Shown in pieces: positions 9,308 to 37,556 of a stretch of DNA of 64,000 bases. Within the stretch, counting starts at the first letter, position 1. Each line of letters begins with the position of its first letter. The translations under genes were made by a program, and so were the position numbers. This DNA comes from Minisyncoccota bacterium (GTDB lineage: Bacteria > Patescibacteriota > Minisyncoccia > Phycocordibacterales > UBA9973): positions 5,715 to 69,714 of the forward strand of contig JBAYHY010000001.1 in the NCBI GenBank assembly GCA_041665885.1, written 5' to 3'. Under the pieces are notes generated by a model that saw only the letters and a program-made list of their open reading frames with translations, was not told the origin of the DNA and searched no databases.

Positions 9308-10384
9308 ATGCAAAACATCGTTTGGATAATAATTGGAATAGTCGTTGGAGCTGTCGTCGTCTATATAATTTTGAATAAGAAGAAAAAGACAGACAATAGT
9401 GACAACCCATTTTCGTTGCTTCAACAGCAGATATCGGAACTTACTCGTCAGCTTGATTCAAAACTTACTGAATCACGTAGAGACATGCAAGATGCGGTAC
9501 GTACCCAGTTTTCTGAATCACAAAAACTCTTAAAAGATATTAATGAGCAAATGAGTAAAAATCTGATTGATGTCGCACGGGAACAAACAAAAACGAACGA
9601 AGCAACTAGAGAATTTGTAACCATTGCAGAAAAACTTAGCAATCTTGAAAAGACTCTCAAACACCAAAAACAGCGAGGCAACTGGGGCGAAGCATCGCTT
9701 GAGCTTATTCTTTCAAATACCTTGGCCCCAGGACAATATAAAATGCAATATGAATTTAAGAACAAAGAAACCGTGGATGCAGTGATAATTACTAAGGAAG
9801 GAATAATTCCGATAGATGCGAAGTTTTCTTTAGACAATTACGATAGGGTTGTGCATGCTATCGACGACCGACAACGTGAAGAGCTTGAAAAAGAATTTAA
9901 AAATGATTTAAAAAAACGGATTGATGAAACTGCAAAATATGTTCGACCGGAAGAAAATACACTCCCTTTTGCTTTTATGTATATCCCCGCTGAAGCAATT
10001 TATTATGATCTGCTTGTCAACGAAGTTGGTTCAATAAAAGTTAACACAAGAAATCTAATTGATTATGCTTACAACGAAAAAAAGGTCATTATCATTTCCC
10101 CCACTACTTTTATGGCATATTTACAGTCGGTTCTATACGGTTTCAAGGCATTTAAAATTGAAGAATCTGCAAAAGAAATAATTAAAAAAGTGAATGATTT
10201 AGGTAAACACTTAGGTGCATATTCTGAATACCACGTTAAATTAGGTAATGCGATTAATACTGTTGCAAATCATTATGATAAATCAAATAAGGAATTAAAA
10301 AAAATAGATAAAGATGTGCTCAAAATCGCCGGCACCTCGCCAGAACTTTCTCTTCTTGAGATAGATAAACCAAAACTAGAATAA
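9308..10384 (+). CDS. rmuC: DNA recombination protein RmuC
   Basis: 358 aa with an N-terminal TM, a coiled coil, and the RmuC C-terminal domain (FAFMYIPAEAIYYDLL). Confidence 0.85.
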   Translation: MQNIVWIIIGIVVGAVVVYIILNKKKKTDNSDNPFSLLQQQISELTRQLDSKLTESRRDMQDAVRTQFSESQKLLKDINEQMSKNLIDVAREQTKTNEATREFVTIAEKLSNLEKTLKHQKQRGNWGEASLELILSNTLAPGQYKMQYEFKNKETVDAVIITKEGIIPIDAKFSLDNYDRVVHAIDDRQREELEKEFKNDLKKRIDETAKYVRPEENTLPFAFMYIPAEAIYYDLLVNEVGSIKVNTRNLIDYAYNEKKVIIISPTTFMAYLQSVLYGFKAFKIEESAKEIIKKVNDLGKHLGAYSEYHVKLGNAINTVANHYDKSNKELKKIDKDVLKIAGTSPELSLLEIDKPKLE

Positions 10385-10461: not shown

Positions 10462-11037
10462 TTAGTCGTAAAACCAATGGTGTCGATCACATCGGTGACA
10501 CCATCCATATCTCGTGTGATGGTGCGGATGACTAAGAGCTATTATGAGCCCTCCCGCCGCCATACTCGCCATAAATAAAAGCAACACGAGTGCTATGAAC
10601 CCCAGACAACCCCAGAAGGAAAGGTCGCCCAACCACCATGCCAAGGATATGGTCCACGGCACGTGCTGCTCTTGGCAGACCTGGGATGGAGGTAGCGGAT
10701 CGAGCGGCCTGGGTTCTGGGGTCAGCGTTGCCAAGCGATTGCCGCATGATGCTTTGTATCTCATGATGCCGTCAATGTCGACAAGAACAACCTCGCCAGC
10801 GTTCACGGTAGTCAACTCGAAAACATTTCGAGCCCGGTTGTAATTCAGAAAGTCCGTGGTAATGGCAAGCCGAGTGGGCCTGAGGCCCATGTCCGCCATC
10901 TGTCCCGCACTTAACGGACCGGACATGATCGGAAACTGATCCAAGTTAGCGCCAGCTGGAACTGTGCCAGCCACCAGCGGTGTTGCTACCGCGAGTAGCA
11001 TCATAGTCAATGCGAGAACCACCATACCGTTTTTCAT
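10462..11037 (-). CDS. Hypothetical secreted / single-pass membrane protein encoded in the GC-rich island (signal peptide, Pro-rich linker, C-terminal TM, His/Cys-rich tail)
   Basis: 191-aa ORF with a signal-peptide-like N-terminus (MKNGMVVLALTMMLLAVATPLVAG), a C-terminal hydrophobic helix and an HPHHHTRYGWCHRCDRHHW tail. It is preceded by a consensus promoter (TTGACA-18-TATAAT) and an SD (AGGAG-7-ATG) and followed by the terminator above. GC is far above the genome background. Confidence 0.5.
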   Translation of the reverse strand: MKNGMVVLALTMMLLAVATPLVAGTVPAGANLDQFPIMSGPLSAGQMADMGLRPTRLAITTDFLNYNRARNVFELTTVNAGEVVLVDIDGIMRYKASCGNRLATLTPEPRPLDPLPPSQVCQEQHVPWTISLAWWLGDLSFWGCLGFIALVLLLFMASMAAGGLIIALSHPHHHTRYGWCHRCDRHHWFYD

Positions 11038-11107
11038 CCCATTCTCCTGTCAACGTGCGAGACATTCTTTTCCCTTATTGGGATCAGCAACGCTCACCTC
11101 TCTTTAT

Positions 11108-11137
11108 ATTATATCACACTATTTACCATTTTGTCAA
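11108..11137 (-). promoter_or_regulatory. Sigma70-like promoter (TTGACA-18-TATAAT) for the island protein gene; back-to-back with the plus-strand promoter of RNA unit 1
   Basis: Minus-strand TTGACA is the complement of 11132-11137. TATAAT is the complement of 11108-11113. Confidence 0.6.
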
Positions 11138-11142
11138 GTTAT

Positions 11143-11383
11143 TGACTTTTCATTAAATCCGAATTAATGTACATTTGAACACACATCGACTTGGAAACGG
11201 ACGACATAGCCCACCTCGATAAAGACGAGAAGGACGAGGCGGAGTAAGGGCTCCCAGGGCTTCCGGTCCGCAGATGGACAACCCGCTCTAGCGTGAGAGC
11301 AACCGTTATCCTAATCTGATCGGGATTCCAAGTCATCGAACGGGCCGGCCTGCAACACGCAGGCCGGCCCATCATCATTTTTA
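11143..11383 (+). ncRNA. Candidate structured sRNA, unit 1 (promoter TTGACT-16-TAATGT, 9-bp closing stem GACUUGGAA/UUCCAAGUC, GC-rich core, intrinsic terminator)
   Basis: The -35 is at 11143-11148 and the -10 at 11165-11170. The terminator hairpin GGGCCGGCCTGC-aacac-GCAGGCCGGCCC lies at 11342-11370 and is followed by CATTTTT. The 5' and 3' ends are shared with unit 2. Confidence 0.5.
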
Positions 11384-11401
11384 ATAAATTTATTAACATT
11401 C

Positions 11402-11673
11402 TTGACTTTTTTTTAAATCCGAATTAATGTACATTTGAATATACATCGACTTGGAAGCGGGGCAGAGAATGGGAAGAATTTCCCGCCCCTCACGACGAAA
11501 CTTGTCGGCCTCTCACACGGAACACGCCGGATAGTGTCTCACGGGAAGGAATTAAATACTCTCCTTTCGGGGAAGAGAGATCGCCCGTGAATGACCTCCA
11601 ACGGTCGAAATCGTGGATTCCAAGTCACCGAATGGGCCGGCCTGCAACACGCAGGCCGGCCCACTTCATTTTT
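11402..11673 (+). ncRNA. Candidate structured sRNA, unit 2 (same promoter, closing stem and terminator as unit 1, unrelated GC-rich core)
   Basis: The -35 TTGACT is at 11402-11407 and the -10 TAATGT at 11425-11430. An identical terminator hairpin lies at 11634-11662, followed by a TTTTT tract. The core contains a GGGGCaGagaaTGGGAAgaaTTTCCCgCCCC hairpin. Confidence 0.5.
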
Positions 11674-13201
11674 ACGCAAAACCAGGGAAGAAATCGGTTT
11701 TAATATTTTTTCTTGATACTCCGATAGATTTCAAGGTATTTTCAAACGCGTCAACCATCCCCCTCGGACCGGAAATATAAAAAGTTTTATTTAAATAATT
11801 TGGAATTTCTTTCTCTATCATCCTCGCATCGATTGAACCTTTTTGCATTGATTCTTCAAATACCGCCTCCCCCTTGCCGGTAATGACATAAACTGTTTTT
11901 ATCCCTAGTTCGGCTCGCGCCCTATCGAAAACCTCCTTATAAGCAATATCCTTGGTCGTTTTATTCGAGTAAAGCAAAGTGATAGTCCTTTTTTGTTTTT
12001 TATCTAGCAAATATTTTATCATGCTACGAAATGGCGTGATACCGATACCCCCGGCAATAAACACCAAATCTTTTTCCGAGTCTTCCGGTAAAACAAAATC
12101 ACCGGATTTTTGGGCTGCGATTATTCCCCCGCCCTCCGGCATGGCAAGCAGGTGATTCTTGAAACTGCTCGGCTCCGGATAGAATTTTACTCCGAGGTGT
12201 ATTTCATCTTCTGTCGGAGATGAAGCCAGAGTAAAATATCGTCTATTCCCTCTCGTATCCGGGCTACGATGTTTGAGGGTCCACTCCATATATTGTCCGG
12301 GGCGGAAATTAAAATTTTTGTCTTTTTCAAAAATAAAATCGTAAGTGTCCACGCCGACCTTGATGCGGTCCTTCAATTTCAAAAATAATTTTTCCTTGGG
12401 GCTCACGATGTAAGCGAAAATATTTCCGATTACTAGGGCAAGCTCTGGCGTTGAATAAAATATTCCAAAATGTAGCGCTGGCGCAAATAAGAAACCGACT
12501 AGTGCACCGAAGGCGATCCGAAGCCATTTCGTGGTCGGAGCCGTCAAGGGCTCTGTGAGCATTACAAAAGCAAAGAAAAAGAACGCGGAATCCGTCATGG
12601 TCCTCATGAGAGTGGTCATGATATCCGAGCCCCTAAACATTGCCAAAACGGAAATAGTAGTGAAAGCAGAAATCAGAAAAGCAAAAAACAAGTCTGCCCG
12701 ACGAATTTTTCTGATTATCAAAAACCCACCGATCAGGACAAAAGGCAACATGTTCGGCGTCCCTATCCACCAACTAGCGGATTGATTAATCGTCAGGGCC
12801 GTGAGTGCCACCGCGAAAGCGGCGGGATTAAAAATATGTTTACCCTTGATGGCCAGAATATATTTAGACGCCATAGCCCAAACTGAAGCCCAAAAAGCAA
12901 ATGGCAAAAATTGCGAATATATCCCACTCTGAATCGGGGTAATGAGAAAAAACAAAATTAGCGCAGTTATATAAATAGATTCTGTGTTGGTAGGCGCGTC
13001 ATAAAAGAAAGAAAAAATAATATTTGTTATCCAGGATATCAACAAAATAATAAGCAGAGAGGAAATAAGATCCGTCGGACTATAGGGCAAAAAACCAAAC
13101 AATGAAAGAACCAGGGACGCACCGAAAAAAAAGATGAGGACGTATAGAACCACCCGGTACATGGTCGTTTTATTTAAAAAATTATCTACAAAATTAAGCA
13201 T
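11672..13201 (-). CDS. Membrane-bound oxidoreductase: N-terminal NqrB/RnfD-like polytopic domain fused to C-terminal ferredoxin-NADP+ reductase-like FAD/NAD(P)-binding domain
   Basis: 509 aa. The N-terminal ~300 aa are hydrophobic (HIFNPAAFAVAL, MLTEPLTAP). The C-terminus carries the RYFTLASSP (RxY[ST] FAD) motif and the GGIGITP NAD-binding motif. Confidence 0.7.
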   Translation of the reverse strand: MLNFVDNFLNKTTMYRVVLYVLIFFFGASLVLSLFGFLPYSPTDLISSLLIILLISWITNIIFSFFYDAPTNTESIYITALILFFLITPIQSGIYSQFLPFAFWASVWAMASKYILAIKGKHIFNPAAFAVALTALTINQSASWWIGTPNMLPFVLIGGFLIIRKIRRADLFFAFLISAFTTISVLAMFRGSDIMTTLMRTMTDSAFFFFAFVMLTEPLTAPTTKWLRIAFGALVGFLFAPALHFGIFYSTPELALVIGNIFAYIVSPKEKLFLKLKDRIKVGVDTYDFIFEKDKNFNFRPGQYMEWTLKHRSPDTRGNRRYFTLASSPTEDEIHLGVKFYPEPSSFKNHLLAMPEGGGIIAAQKSGDFVLPEDSEKDLVFIAGGIGITPFRSMIKYLLDKKQKRTITLLYSNKTTKDIAYKEVFDRARAELGIKTVYVITGKGEAVFEESMQKGSIDARMIEKEIPNYLNKTFYISGPRGMVDAFENTLKSIGVSRKNIKTDFFPGFA

Positions 13202-15802: not shown

Positions 15803-16313
15803 TTTTGTTTCCTATTTTATCAAACAAGTTTTTAAGCTTTTCTTTTGCTCGACTAATCCTCACCAATACAGTGTTCTCCCGCTCTCCGAGCAACTCTGCC
15901 ATATCTTTCGAACTCATGTCCTCGATAAACCTTAGAATAATTACATCTCTGTCGGACGGGGGCAACTTATCAAGCAGAGAAAGGAAAATTGAATAATCAA
16001 TATTGTTCTCTGTGTTATCCTTTTCCGCGATTGATTCGAAAAATCCTTCCGGTAATTGGCTCTCCACCACGCTTTTCTTCTTTCTCCAATAATCGATGAC
16101 AGTATTCTTCGCAGTAATGTAAATAAAACTCTTGGCGTTCTGTGCCTCGCTATTCTTCAGATAATTGAATACCTTGATAAAAGTATCTTGCGCCAAATCT
16201 TTTGCCACTTCCCTGTCTCCGGTCTTAAAATAGCAAAAACGAAAAATAGCGTCTGCGTGTGCGTCATATAATTCAACGAACAATTCTTCTATTTTATCAT
16301 CACCGTTATTCAT
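15795..16313 (-). CDS. ECF-type RNA polymerase sigma-70 factor
   Basis: 172 aa. Region 2 (DLAQDTFIKVF, YITAKNTVIDYWRKK) and region 4 (DRDVIILRFIEDMSSKDMAELLG) are both present. Confidence 0.85.
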   Translation of the reverse strand: MNNGDDKIEELFVELYDAHADAIFRFCYFKTGDREVAKDLAQDTFIKVFNYLKNSEAQNAKSFIYITAKNTVIDYWRKKKSVVESQLPEGFFESIAEKDNTENNIDYSIFLSLLDKLPPSDRDVIILRFIEDMSSKDMAELLGERENTVLVRISRAKEKLKNLFDKIGNKNE

Positions 16314-16390
16314 GTTTAATGACGTATTGCCTCTTGTTTTTATTACAAAAAATAACTATTAAATCGGAACAAAATTCTTTTTTCTACGTG

Positions 16391-16462
16391 TGACCCTACC
16401 GGGAATCGAACCCGAATTTTATCCTTGAGAAGGATACGTCCTAACCGTTAGACGATAGGGCC
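16391..16462 (-). tRNA. tRNA-Glu (anticodon CUC)
   Basis: The reverse complement folds as a cloverleaf: GGCCCUA acceptor, anticodon loop UUCUCAA, T-loop UUCGAUU. Confidence 0.85.
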
Positions 16463-16565
16463 AACGAGAAGAATATAACATTTTTTAAAGAAAATTAAAA
16501 ATATTAATATTCTAATAAACACCCAAATATTATCGGACGGCCAACGTCTGTGGCCACAAATCTTG

Positions 16566-16800
16566 ATTAATTTTTTATCCAATTCAAAATATCCTTTATC
16601 GCAGTTTCGTTTTCTAAGTAAAAAATTGGTAAAGAATGTTTCGTTACATTTTCTATTTCCATCTTTGTCACACTTGATGTTTCCCATCCAGGCAAAACAG
16701 CCAATCCGTCACAACGGCGCAAAAACTCGGCATTCATATCCCAGGCTAACTTACTCGCCTCTTCTCCTAGAGAAATAATTTCTTGGTCAATATTTAAATG
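16566..16800 (-). pseudogene. Fragment of a DUF4406 / nucleoside 2-deoxyribosyltransferase-like gene (C-terminal ~78 aa, no start codon)
   Basis: The minus-strand frame translates ...LAWDMNAEFLRRCDGLAVLPGWETSSVTKMEIENVTKHSLPIFYLEN.... The LPGWExS...E...PI motif is characteristic. The frame is open upstream only to a stop, with no initiator. Confidence 0.35.
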
Positions 16801-16843
16801 AGCTAAGCAAGAACCGTTCTTGCTTAGCTGTTCTTGCTTAGCT
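16801..16843. repeat. Near-perfect 14-bp-arm palindrome (AGCTAAGCAAGAAC-c-GTTCTTGCTTAGCT) with a tandem duplication of the right arm, followed by a T-rich tract
   Basis: The palindrome is seen directly. The second copy of GTTCTTGCTTAGCT lies at 16830-16843. Confidence 0.6.
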
Positions 16844-16871
16844 TGTTATTTTATAAATTCCCCCACAAACG

Positions 16872-17388
16872 AAAAAAGCCGTCGAGAAACTCGACAGGCC
16901 TTTGGTGATAATTTGGGTGGGGAGGTTTCCTAGTGGAAACCTCCCCTAACCCTTTTGGTCACGATGTGGCTGTGGGGGATTGATTTTTGTTTTTGCCCCG
17001 TTAGCCCGACATGGCGACCGATGTGAGAGAGCAAGTTCGCGTCCTAGACGCCATGCTCTCACGACTCCAGAAAAACAACTAATTTTTTTCAAACAGGAGC
17101 TTTTACGACCTTCCTGGGGTCAAGTTGACCCGAGCTCCTTGGTCGCCGCCGAAGCCCTCAGGCTTCGACGAAACTGGCAGTGTCGCGCGCGTTTATCACG
17201 ACTCCCTCCCTTCTAATTCTTTCTTGGGCGCTGGTTAGCGGCCCATGCCGTCGGGCTTGCGGGCGGTGGCGAAGCCGGCGATCTTGGTCTTCTTCTTCGA
17301 ATTTTCCATCTTCTCGAGGAACCGGGGGGAACCGCGAATCATGCGAGCCTCCTACCGTGATAACCAGGGACCTCCCCCAGCTATCTTC
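16872..17388 (-). ncRNA. Candidate large (~515 nt) GC-rich structured RNA of unknown class, bounded by a consensus promoter and an intrinsic terminator
   Basis: The minus-strand promoter is TTGACA(comp 17417-17422)-16-TATACT(comp 17395-17400). The terminator on the minus strand is GUCGAG-uuu-CUCGAC-GGC-UUUUUU (16877-16895). Perfect hairpins are dense throughout, e.g. GGGGAGGTTTCC-tagt-GGAAACCTCCCC, GGGTCAAGTTGACCC, AGGAGCT...AGCTCCT and GTGAGAGAGC...GCTCTCAC. GC is far above background. Confidence 0.5.
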
Positions 17389-17394
17389 CCACAC

Positions 17395-17422
17395 AGTATA
17401 GCACTACTACAAAAAATGTCAA
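17395..17422 (-). promoter_or_regulatory. Consensus sigma70-like promoter (TTGACA-16-TATACT) driving the GC-rich RNA candidate
   Basis: The -35 and -10 hexamers are seen directly as complements of tgtcaa (17417-17422) and agtata (17395-17400). Confidence 0.6.
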
Positions 17423-17490
17423 GCAATCCCCTTTTTTATTTATTAATGCAATTATCTTGCAACCAGGCGGGTATTATCACTCCTTTTTGC

Positions 17491-18456
17491 CTATATAATC
17501 GCATTGAATAGATATCCCGTAAGAATAATCCCGGTAGCCACTATCCCGGCGAAAATCAAAATCAATTTAATCTTCATTACTTTCTTTAAAATCATAAACT
17601 CCGGCAAAGATAAGGCGGTCACGGACATCATAAATGCAAGCGTAGTTCCGACTGAAACTCCCTTTTCAGTCAAAGCGGAAACAAGCGGGATAACTCCAGC
17701 AGCATTCGAATATAAAGGAATACCGATAAGCACAGCGAGCGGCACTGCATACCATTTATCACTTCCGGCATATTGGGCCAAAAAATCAGCCGGAACATAG
17801 CCATGTATCCAGGCTCCGATTCCAATCCCGATTAAAATATATATCCAAACTTTTTTCAATATATCCAGAGTGTACTCTTTTGCATAAGCGATTCTTTCCT
17901 TTCCCGTCATTGTCGGTAGGTCGATATTCCCATTCAATGTATTTTGATAGACAAAGGGTTCAACCAAGCCCTCTACCTTCATTTTACCGATAATTATTCC
18001 TGAGAGAATGGCAATAATAAGTCCACTGACTATATACATGAGAGCGATTTTCCAGCCAAACATTCCGAGAAGTAAAACAAGTGCCACCTCATTTATCATC
18101 GGAGAAGCGATAAGGAATGAAAATGTAGTTCCAAGAGGAACACCTGCTTGAACAAATCCTAAAAATAGTGGGATGGCGGAACAAGAGCAAAAGGGAGTAA
18201 TAATTCCTAGAAGTGAAGCAATCACATTCCCCAGGTACTTATTTTTGTGAGATAAAATCGCTCGTATTTTCTCCGGTGGTAAATATGAGCGAATGATAGA
18301 AACAAGGAAAATAATAACAGCTAGTAAAATAAATATTTTAAGTGTGTCAAAAATAAAAAAATTAACGGCGCCCGCTAAAAGAGTTTTGGGAGTAATATTA
18401 AAAACCGCATAGGTCAACCAGTCAGCAAATAATTGAATGGGATAAAAAATGCTCAT
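17491..18456 (-). CDS. DUF318/ArsP-family permease (TPFCSCS motif)
   Basis: 321 aa polytopic protein with the ITPFCSCSAIP motif characteristic of the ArsP/PF03773 family. Confidence 0.7.
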   Translation of the reverse strand: MSIFYPIQLFADWLTYAVFNITPKTLLAGAVNFFIFDTLKIFILLAVIIFLVSIIRSYLPPEKIRAILSHKNKYLGNVIASLLGIITPFCSCSAIPLFLGFVQAGVPLGTTFSFLIASPMINEVALVLLLGMFGWKIALMYIVSGLIIAILSGIIIGKMKVEGLVEPFVYQNTLNGNIDLPTMTGKERIAYAKEYTLDILKKVWIYILIGIGIGAWIHGYVPADFLAQYAGSDKWYAVPLAVLIGIPLYSNAAGVIPLVSALTEKGVSVGTTLAFMMSVTALSLPEFMILKKVMKIKLILIFAGIVATGIILTGYLFNAII

Positions 18457-18458
18457 AA

Positions 18459-18698
18459 TTACATATTTTCTTCTATTATTTTTTTGATTTTTTCAATATC
18501 CGAAGTAAAGCCAACCAAAACCGGTTTTTCATTTATCACCAAAACGGGACTCTGCATCAAACCCATGGCAATAATCTTTTGCACGTCGGTAATGTATTCA
18601 ACATTTTCTTTTAAGCCCAAAGTGGCAACCGCCTTTTGAGTAATTTCAAACAACTTTTTACATGTTGCGCACCCCGAACCCAATACTTGTATTTTCAT
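18459..18698 (-). CDS. Thioredoxin-fold redox-active disulfide protein 2 (CxxC)
   Basis: 79 aa with a GCATC motif. This family is commonly paired with PF03773 permeases. Confidence 0.7.
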   Translation of the reverse strand: MKIQVLGSGCATCKKLFEITQKAVATLGLKENVEYITDVQKIIAMGLMQSPVLVINEKPVLVGFTSDIEKIKKIIEENM

Positions 18699-18885
18699 AT
18701 AATTTATTTTGTTAGTTCTGACCTCGCGACGCTTAAACAGTTTAGCATATATTTAAAATGAATTTACTAAACAAAAATTACATTAATTATTTTCAAAAAA
18801 ATTAATTTGACTTTTCCCATGTGTGTTATATATTGATAAATGAATTGTTCTGGCGGGGATTACACTATTTGGATAGGAGGCTCGA

Positions 18886-19134
18886 ATGAACACAACCACG
18901 GGAAACATCGTTGTGTGCGTCGTTGAAACAAGAAGACTGGTTAATCTTTTGTCCTTGGTTAGAAAATCAAACTCCGGGTCTTTTGATCTCATCAGCCAAT
19001 CCCTCGATAGGAACCTCAAGGTCATCGAGGAAAAACTCAAAGAAATACAGATGGCAAACATGAGAACCAGAGCCTTCTACGTCGACAAGGCCATTAAAGA
19101 GAACGTTGAATTTGAGTCAAAAGATACCTTCTAG
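18886..19134 (+). CDS. Hypothetical small protein
   Basis: 82 aa with a strong SD (AGGAGG-N5-ATG), a TTGACT-type promoter upstream (18818-18848), and an intrinsic terminator downstream. Confidence 0.45.
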   Translation: MNTTTGNIVVCVVETRRLVNLLSLVRKSNSGSFDLISQSLDRNLKVIEEKLKEIQMANMRTRAFYVDKAIKENVEFESKDTF

Positions 19135-37148: not shown

Positions 37149-37388
37149 GGGACCCTACCGGACTTCTTTCCCTACGGGAACAGTATACCTTTTCAAATAG
37201 TTAATTTTGTATGCTTCGCATTCTGAATTTATGTGGTCACAAGTTACTAAATAAAATTTTTCGATATCCTCAAATTTTATGTAAGTACTTGCCGACCCCA
37301 GCTCGGCTATTCGCGTACTCGCGAATTATGCCTGTGCCTTCACAAACGGCTCGCAAATAAAGCAGTTTATTTGGCTTTGCGCCGTTTG

Positions 37389-37460
37389 TGACCCTACCGG
37401 GAATCGAACCCGAATTACCGGCTTGAAAAGCCGATGTCCTAACCGTTAGACGATAGGGCC
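37389..37460 (-). tRNA. tRNA-Glu (anticodon UUC)
   Basis: Identical to the tRNA-Glu(CUC) at 16391-16462 except in the anticodon arm. The anticodon loop is UUUUCAA. Confidence 0.85.
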
Positions 37461-37494: not shown

Positions 37495-37556
37495 CTATTC
37501 AGCTTTTCAAAAAGCCGATGTCCACTATGTTCTAACTTGGTTAGACGATAGGGCCA
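37495..37556 (-). repeat. tRNA-Glu 5'-half pseudo-copy directly upstream (same strand) of tRNA-Glu(UUC)
   Basis: The minus strand reads GGCCCUAUCGUCUAAC..ACAUCGGCUUUUUGAAAAGC, with the first 16 nt identical to the tRNA 5' end. The upstream flank AATATAACATTTTT is also shared with the tRNA-Glu(CUC) locus. Confidence 0.6.

Follow-up and report, generated by a model that had tools for sequence, protein, structure and literature searches.

A GC-rich, hairpin-dense element next to tRNA-Glu in a CPR genome: not a GOLLD/ROOL-type RNA, and possibly an acquired moron-like unit with a small open reading frame

What is encoded by a GC-rich island situated between an ArsP permease gene and a tRNA-Glu gene in an AT-rich CPR (Paceibacterota) genome? 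The original prediction interpreted it as a discrete minus-strand transcription unit encoding no convincing protein and reminiscent of the large ornate RNAs of the GOLLD/ROOL type. We analysed this element within a window of 64 kb, that is, the whole stretch of DNA considered here. Features of the element and its surroundings are listed in the table.

The existence of a separate minus-strand unit is backed by transcription signals, composition and folding energy, the transcript itself being predicted. The textbook promoter is indeed present, with a TG extension of the -10 box, in the AT-rich spacer past the ArsP stop codon, and so is the intrinsic terminator, with its stem followed by CTTTTTT; both were called by consensus matching. 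The predicted unit between them is approximately 520 nt long, with transcript ends expected at about 17388 and 16875. Its GC content is 58-64%, compared to the window mean of 40%, in agreement with the GC-richness relative to the flanks that had been reported, and the tRNA-Glu gene is indeed located nearby, on the downstream side. There are only four sites with at least 11 of 12 promoter matches in the 64-kb window, and block shuffles have 2.3 such sites on average. Two of these four sites have the extended -10 box, and each of the two precedes one of the two GC-rich islands of the window. No promoter-like sites were observed on the plus strand within 16872-17425. Three further assemblies, two of them from separate Logan runs (SRR18595301 and SRR6484324) and one a JGI metagenome contig (3300037810), contain the element base for base together with both AT-rich junctions, and thus it is not an assembly chimera.

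Table. Features of the GC-rich element and of its neighbourhood (window coordinates)
Feature	Position	Strand	Details
Trx3 gene	18459-18698	(-)	directly upstream of the element together with ArsP_1; pair missing from the same locus in relatives
ArsP_1 permease gene	17491-18456	(-)	see Trx3
RBS and ATG of orf82, TAGGAGGCTCGAATGA	18874-18889	(+)	15 of 16 positions match TAGGAGGCTCGCATGA at 17354-17339 (-)
Candidate sigma-70-type promoter, TTGACA-16 nt-TATACT	17422-17395	(-)	11 of 12 matches; extended -10 (TG)
5'-terminal hairpin GAUAGCUGGGG-GAGGU-CCCUGGUUAUC	17359..17385	(-)	in MFE and centroid structures; 11 bp, 3 of them G-U
RBS and start codon, TAGGAGGCTCGCATGA	17339..17354	(-)	AGGAGG 17353-17348, N5, ATG at 17342
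35-codon ORF	17342-17235	(-)	stop codon (TAA) included; product MIRGSPRFLEKMENSKKKTKIAGFATARKPDGMGR
Hairpin-rich untranslated 3' region	16915..17202	(-)	6 independent stem-loops: 17202-17182, 17170-17147, 17146-17105, 17060-17027, 17019-16957, 16952-16915
Candidate intrinsic terminator, GGCCUGUCGAG-UUU-CUCGACGGCU and U6	16872..16903	(-)	stem 16897-16879; DNA: CTGTCGAG-TTT-CTCGACGG, then CTTTTTT
14-mer AGCTAAGCAAGAAC	16801..16847	(+) and (-)	16801-16814 once (+); 16816-16843 twice in tandem (-); perfect 14-bp palindrome
DUF4406 gene remnant	16567..16800	(-)	profile positions 48-91 of 91; C-terminal part only
tRNA-Glu(CTC) gene	16390-16462	(-)	approximately 410 nt downstream of the terminator

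The minus-strand RNA of 519 nt has a predicted folding energy of -217.5 kcal/mol against -176.8 +/- 6.9 kcal/mol in dinucleotide shuffles (z = -5.9), and the opposite (plus) strand of the element has z = -4.6. The 5' 156 nt, comprising the 5'UTR and an ORF considered below, have no excess structure (z = +0.9), and the 3' 363 nt past the stop codon (16872-17234) have z = -5.4. The centroid fold of this 3' part is a chain of seven separate local stem-loops of 6-18 pairs each with few or no mismatches, the seventh being the terminator. An A/U-rich spacer at approximately 17100-17065 divides the hairpin region in two. As three of the eleven pairs in the 5' hairpin are G-U, it can form on the minus-strand RNA only, and a few further G-U pairs in the stems of the element likewise favour the minus-strand RNA. 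The helices GCGACC/GGUCGU and AGGAGCU/AGCUCCU around 17146-17094 are mutually exclusive or pseudoknot-compatible. All hairpins named previously were recovered: the 12-bp stem GGGGAGGUUUCC/GGAAACCUCCCC, GGGUC..GACCC within AGGAGCU/AGCUCCU, GUGAGAG..CUCUCAC, and GAAGCC/GGCUUC. Some of them had been written in the plus-strand orientation.

Comparison of the whole window with all 4227 models of Rfam 15 (cmscan, gathering scores) produced seven tRNAs and nothing else. When the region 16300-17700 was scanned with permissive filters (E <= 10), the only matches were the tRNA and noise far below the threshold, such as miRNA, lncRNA and plastid UTR models. No match to GOLLD (RF01998), ROOL (RF03087), OLE, raiA, HEARO, RNase P, tmRNA, SRP, 6S, RNAIII, group I or II introns or ribozymes was observed in this region, and ARAGORN found no tmRNA. 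Thus the absence of tmRNA, RNase P and SRP RNA, which had been noticed by eye, was confirmed, and the comparison with Rfam that had been suggested along with it revealed no housekeeping or large-RNA family. The element does resemble GOLLD and ROOL in its length of several hundred nucleotides, in being richer in GC than the host and in its location near a tRNA gene in an accessory region. However, those RNAs have conserved multi-stem junctions, whereas here the centroid fold consists of independent local hairpins following a coding-like 5' third. There is no covariance-model match at E <= 10, no homologue family was found, and the closest relatives lack the element. The proposed likeness did not hold, and the element is neither a GOLLD/ROOL-type RNA nor a housekeeping RNA. 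A self-splicing intron or ribozyme was rejected together with housekeeping RNAs, given the Rfam and ARAGORN results and the absence from related loci, although for such RNAs a location elsewhere in those genomes is possible.

The coding-like part is an ORF of 35 codons starting approximately 46 nt past the expected transcription start. The original prediction had placed a Shine-Dalgarno box with ATG at 30 nt and derived a 42-aa Arg/Pro peptide from it. The predicted product is instead Lys/Arg-rich, with ten K/R against three D/E residues and a net charge of +7, hydrophilic and devoid of hydrophobic stretches. The GC content at the three codon positions is 0.47/0.47/0.86. The GC content at third positions (GC3, 0.86-0.89) is far above that of neighbouring host genes (0.33-0.45), which suggests codon usage of a high-GC organism, that is, foreign origin. 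The periodicity statistic is 0.414 compared to 0.24 +/- 0.047 in dinucleotide shuffles of the element, a level reached by none of the 500 shuffles, although an antisense ORF of 88 aa (17245-17511, plus strand), sharing the third positions, would give an equal signal. The three-base GC periodicity is bounded by the ORF, as its onset and end coincide with the start and stop codons. Codon-position bias between start and stop, together with a ribosome-binding site 5 nt ahead of the ATG, is what is expected of a small coding gene. As the periodicity is significant, the statement that no convincing protein is encoded was too strong.

Strong Shine-Dalgarno sites are mostly missing in this CPR window: the pattern AGGAGG-N4-9-ATG occurs at 11 sites. 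At least four other such sites head short ORFs (82, 65, 79 and 122 aa) with raised GC3 (0.56-0.67). Thus the 35-codon ORF fits a local class of Shine-Dalgarno-led accessory small genes, of which it is the extreme member. The 16-nt motif covering its ribosome-binding site and start codon has two matches in the window, compared to 0.02 expected by chance, the second one being the start region of the divergent gene orf82. The spacing from the -35 box to the ATG is the same in the 5' regions of both ORFs. Being in opposite orientations, the two copies enclose Trx3-ArsP and both outward-facing promoters as an inverted repeat; orf82 with its promoter and ribosome-binding site is ancestral.

No relatives of the 35-aa peptide were found other than itself. 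A word-indexed search of 5.8 billion proteins, with the query padded to 40 aa, returned only the identical JGI protein, and a full HMMER search of 1.84 billion cluster representatives returned only the identical sequence; in both cases it should be kept in mind that gene finders seldom call ORFs shorter than 40 aa. There was no match by tblastn in plasmid records, and ORFs of the element in all six frames had no significant matches in Pfam, NCBIfam, PHROGs or PDB. Hence no conserved homologues under purifying selection were found, and the element is new only in the weak sense of being an orphan. Type I toxin-antitoxin loci also combine a tiny ORF, a strong ribosome-binding site and a highly structured RNA in an accessory region. 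However, the peptide considered here is strongly basic and lacks a hydrophobic helix, and there is no internal antisense promoter within 16872-17425, so this candidate was rejected.

Searches at the nucleotide level gave a similar picture. No relative of the element was found in phage and plasmid records by blastn in the 'distant' setting. Viral contigs contained no match to DNA patterns derived from the 12-bp hairpin and from two back-translated peptide stretches, exact or degenerate. We also translated the whole element in two frames, with stops set to X, and scanned with six spaced degenerate 8-codon patterns per frame. In viral contigs (frame 1 and a 78-aa ORF) there were pattern matches, none of which was confirmed, and in JGI metagenome contigs, a collection without the source contig itself, none of the matches to the 12 degenerate patterns (frames 1 and 0) was confirmed. 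None of 80 CPR loci with an ArsP permease contained the element (blastn and nhmmer), and neither did any orthologous locus found via sigma-factor homologues. GC-rich islands past ArsP do occur in other CPR loci; one of them (L036) is a protein gene, and two (L082, L070) have no Rfam match there. Clusters at 90% identity of ArsP, Trx3, orf82 and the DUF4406 remnant have one member each, and thus provide no strain-level variants from which dN/dS or compensatory changes could be estimated. The collections searched yielded no donor sequence, and the window contains neither a second copy of the element nor significant complementarity to it.

The origin of the locus can be considered by comparison with relatives, whose database names put the organism in Candidatus Paceibacterota within CPR/Patescibacteria. 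The neighbouring genes encode MscL, a hydrolase, a response regulator or similar protein, Trx3, ArsP, the DUF4406 remnant, tRNA-Glu and an ECF sigma factor, with DUF5667 also present. The gene order in the window is RR-orf82-Trx3-ArsP-element-DUF4406 remnant-tRNA-sigma. In the closest relative (L084; sigma factor 95% identical at the protein level, flanks 81% at the nucleotide level) it is RR-orf81-orf85-DUF4406-tRNA-Glu-sigma, with a full DUF4406 gene (121 aa) and without Trx3, ArsP and the element. Hence the 5' 132 nt of the DUF4406 gene were lost from the window copy, and Trx3-ArsP with the element appear to have replaced the 5' half of this gene in an accessory block. That relatives with flanks as similar as 81% at the nucleotide level lack the element speaks against an RNA gene of long-standing conservation. 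In two further relatives (L085, L086), which lack the element, the position is taken by different cargo, namely a Hint-domain or a NUDIX gene. In streamlined relatives (L089-L096), DUF454 and a small ORF are followed by the sigma gene, and the accessory genes including the element are missing; in those scanned, the tRNA precedes the sigma gene. A perfect 14-bp palindrome lies exactly at the right-hand breakpoint, and nucleotide homology to the closest relative resumes at 16800. Hundreds of CPR genomes encode a Trx3-ArsP pair, in unrelated contexts and with 77-90% amino acid identity; at the nucleotide level, the similarity between these copies and the one in the window does not extend past the ArsP stop codon. 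No recombinase or transposase was found in the accessory block, and no tRNA-derived att-like repeats near the locus. Among PHROGs, the ORFs of the element and orf82 had no significant matches, and the DUF4406 remnant matched only the nucleoside 2-deoxyribosyltransferase family.

Given these observations, we tentatively read the element, as the most economical explanation, as a strain-specific, recently and horizontally acquired, self-contained unit composed of a promoter, a small ORF, hairpins and a terminator, similar to a moron. What is predicted in this reading, namely that the unit is transcribed, that the ORF is translated, how the hairpins act and that the DNA is foreign, connects features that were observed or computed. 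The strong sigma-70-type promoter would start an RNA of approximately 520 nt, capped by the 5' hairpin. The consensus Shine-Dalgarno box would drive translation of the highly basic orphan peptide, with the codon usage of a high-GC donor, and the remaining 360 nt or so would fold into the seven mutually independent GC-rich stem-loops, ending with the terminator. The hairpins would most likely stabilise the mRNA and terminate or insulate transcription. They would also stop read-through from Trx3-ArsP and from the strong promoter before it reaches the tRNA-Glu and sigma-factor genes; since there is no terminator between ArsP (17491) and 17425, transcripts of ArsP probably end at the terminator of the element as well. 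Several observations count against this reading. The peptide has only 35 aa and neither homologues nor profile matches, the antisense ORF would account for the periodicity equally well, and the searches revealed no donor sequence. Moreover, seven strong hairpins in 360 nt exceed the usual need for termination or stabilisation.

Morons of prophages are autonomous promoter-gene-terminator units inserted between conserved genes, for example in lambdoid phages HK97 and HK022. Like them, the element has its own candidate promoter and factor-independent terminator, deviating base composition and a single small gene of unknown function, and it is present in one genome and missing from the same position in close relatives. 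Unlike them, it resides in a CPR host outside any prophage, and has a gene of only 35 codons with a multi-hairpin tail of approximately 360 nt. As there are no phage genes nearby, 'moron' is an analogy only: the element would work like a moron, and is not classed as one.

A rival explanation is that the element is non-functional filler, a high-GC foreign fragment captured in the rearrangement that brought Trx3-ArsP and deleted the 5' half of the DUF4406 gene. Its promoter, ribosome-binding site and terminator would then be fortuitous or borrowed, and its hairpins would be intergenic terminators or REP-like stems of the donor. The element does lie at an exact rearrangement breakpoint adjoining a truncated gene and a palindrome, it is confined to one species with no relatives in any search, its un-ameliorated composition points to a recent arrival, and its ribosome-binding site resembles a copy of that of the neighbouring orf82. 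However, a promoter, a correctly spaced Shine-Dalgarno box, an ORF matched by periodicity and a terminator are unlikely to occur by accident in the right order on one strand, and the other GC-rich island of the window, with the same promoter style, is conserved in a relative. We consider filler unlikely, though a serious rival. The array of palindromes and the 16-nt inverted repeats might instead constitute a DNA-level element serving recombination, inversion or mobilisation of Trx3-ArsP. The repeats do flank Trx3-ArsP with both outward promoters (segment 17355-18873), the perfect 14-bp palindrome lies at the breakpoint, and the gene pair occurs in many unrelated CPR contexts. This is very improbable, as the block encodes no recombinase or transposase, other Trx3-ArsP loci lack comparable flanks, the inverted repeat coincides with two ribosome-binding sites, one of them ancestral, and the G-U pairs of several stems would not match in DNA.

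The excess folding energy of the 3' 363 nt could also reflect an orphan structured or dual-function regulatory RNA acting via its 3' hairpin domain, whether or not the ORF is translated. RNAs with both coding and regulatory functions include RNAIII, SgrS/SgrT and SR1/SR1P; RNAIII of S. aureus is 514 nt long and combines the 26-codon hld ORF with a 3' domain of multiple hairpins. The predicted transcript is similar in size and layout, as a strong promoter is followed by a tiny 5' ORF, a 3' part with many hairpins and an intrinsic terminator, and the 5' hairpin, the preference of G-U pairs for the minus-strand RNA and the exclusive or pseudoknot-compatible helices are consistent with such a role. 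The promoter may be among the strongest in the region. On the other hand, there is no sequence or covariance-model similarity to these RNAs (RNAIII is represented in Rfam), no target complementarity in the rest of the window, and no conservation, so that covariation is lacking. The near-perfect independent helices look like young inverted repeats or terminators, not like a conserved tertiary fold, and the absence from close relatives does not fit a housekeeping role. A regulatory RNA with an RNAIII-like layout is therefore improbable in our assessment, and a little more so in the specific form of a lineage-specific, foreign-acquired dual-function or purely structural RNA with a possible pseudoknot at approximately 17146-17094. 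As for a divergent member of a known large or housekeeping family (GOLLD, ROOL, OLE, raiA, HEARO, RNase P, tmRNA, SRP, 6S, group I or II introns), the size, the GC-richness in an AT-rich genome and the proximity to a tRNA would fit. However, none of the 4227 Rfam models matches the element at gathering score, none of these families appears at E <= 10 in 16300-17700, ARAGORN reports no tmRNA, the 5' third is coding-like, and relatives do not conserve the element. On these sequence comparisons, such a membership has hardly any probability left and appears effectively refuted.

If the element is indeed an acquired unit with a small gene, it represents ordinary genome plasticity: an orphan mini-gene that arrived recently at an accessory hot-spot of a CPR genome. 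It would be one more example of high-GC DNA and small Shine-Dalgarno-led genes reaching such genomes by horizontal transfer. Its main value, however, would be cautionary. In AT-rich genomes, the classic signature by which new structured RNAs are sought is a long, GC-rich intergenic region that folds well and has a promoter and a terminator, and here the same signature would be produced by un-ameliorated foreign DNA composed of a mini-ORF with high GC3 and of hairpins resembling terminators. These situations can be told apart by two simple tests, namely the folding z-score computed separately for parts of the element and codon periodicity. A lineage-specific dual-function or structured RNA, if real, would be of moderate interest, given that the host is a CPR bacterium (an episymbiont).

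The second GC-rich island of the window (10462-11680) has a perfect promoter TTGACA-18-TATAAT and encodes an orphan membrane protein of 191 aa. This gene is retained in one relative (57% amino acid identity), where it also has a high GC content in an AT-rich genome.

The genes for Thioredoxin_3 and the ArsP_1 permease upstream of the GC-rich, hairpin-dense element form a pair found in many CPR classes with protein identity of 77-90% (comparison loci L004-L083). The records containing this pair are named Nomurabacteria, Gribaldobacteria, Doudnabacteria, Moranbacteria, Saccharibacteria and others, and its flanks are otherwise unrelated among these loci. High protein identity across classes together with unrelated flanks suggests that the two-gene cassette is often transferred horizontally. 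No recognisable mobility gene was observed with the cassette.

The pair and two outward-facing promoters are enclosed between inverted copies of a 16-nt repeat, TAGGAGGCTCGMATGA. One copy contains the ribosome-binding site and ATG of the 35-codon ORF of the GC-rich element, and the other contains those of orf82, a divergent 82-aa gene beyond the pair. The distance from the -35 box to the ATG is equal on both sides. The repeat could be a result of copying of the ribosome-binding site, or the region could be an invertible or mobilisable segment.

Compared to its counterpart in L084 (4651-5016), the closest relative, the DUF4406 gene is truncated by 132 nt at the 5' end. The break coincides exactly with a perfect 14-bp palindrome and a third tandem copy (AGCTAAGCAAGAAC), and this 14-mer has no further occurrence in the window and none in the 96 loci. 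The ECF sigma-factor gene adjoins a tRNA gene, which in the window is tRNA-Glu. The two genes share a strand in the window and in L084 (tRNA at 5121-5192), whereas in the orthologous loci L085 (tRNA at 9869-9940) and L086 (tRNA at 8675-8746) they are on opposite strands. Therefore, the tRNA-proximal region has been repeatedly inverted or rearranged in this lineage. One end of the tRNA-Glu(CTC) sequence recurs as an identical 16-nt stretch approximately 80 nt away from tRNA-Glu(TTC), the second tRNA-Glu gene. This stretch may be what is left of a site of integration or duplication.

Features of the window, with coordinates
Feature	Position	Strand	Comment
Thioredoxin_3 + ArsP_1 pair	17491-18721
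DUF4406 gene	16567-16847		range includes the palindrome at the break
tRNA-Glu(CTC)	16390-16462	-
16-nt inverted repeat	17339-17354	-	35-codon ORF
16-nt inverted repeat	18874-18889	+	orf82
Copy of tRNA-Glu(CTC) end	37540-37555
tRNA-Glu(TTC)	37388-37460
Second GC-rich island	10462-11140	-	54-61% GC; counterpart in the compared locus L088, 92-1344
Promoter of second island	11137-11108	-	perfect TTGACA-18-TATAAT, with TG
Two tandem non-coding modules	11128-11663		spacing ~260-290 nt
SD-led small ORF	26301	+	65 aa
SD-led small ORF	34965	+	79 aa
SD-led small ORF	36720	+	122 aa
SD-led small ORF	18886	+	82 aa

The second GC-rich island encodes an orphan ORF of 191 aa with an N-terminal hydrophobic segment, another hydrophobic stretch, and a C-terminus rich in His and Cys. 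Its only homologue among 5.8 billion proteins searched (57% amino acid identity) adjoins RmuC in a related AT-rich genome, and both the promoter and the high GC content are retained there. Upstream of this ORF there are two tandem non-coding modules. Both contain the hairpin GGGCCGGCCTGCGTGTTGCAGGCCGGCCC with TTCGxTGACTTGGAATCC (copies 96% identical) and a 73-nt block, ...CCAAGTCGATGT.TTCAAATGTACATTAATTCGGATTTAA... (85% identical). The modules have no match in Rfam.

Perfect AGGAGG-N4-9-ATG sites are few in the window and often precede small ORFs with raised GC3 (0.56-0.67). By crude start-codon calls, even a 4-mer of the Shine-Dalgarno core is present at only 6 of the 50 window ORFs of at least 150 aa. 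Subject to these crude calls, accessory small genes led by Shine-Dalgarno boxes may form a class in a genome otherwise using such boxes poorly.

A LOOT RNA (RF03000), unrelated to the GC-rich element, was found by Rfam in L070, a Moraniibacteriota MAG from the ArsP comparison (10749-10871, minus strand; score 77 bits, gathering score 46).
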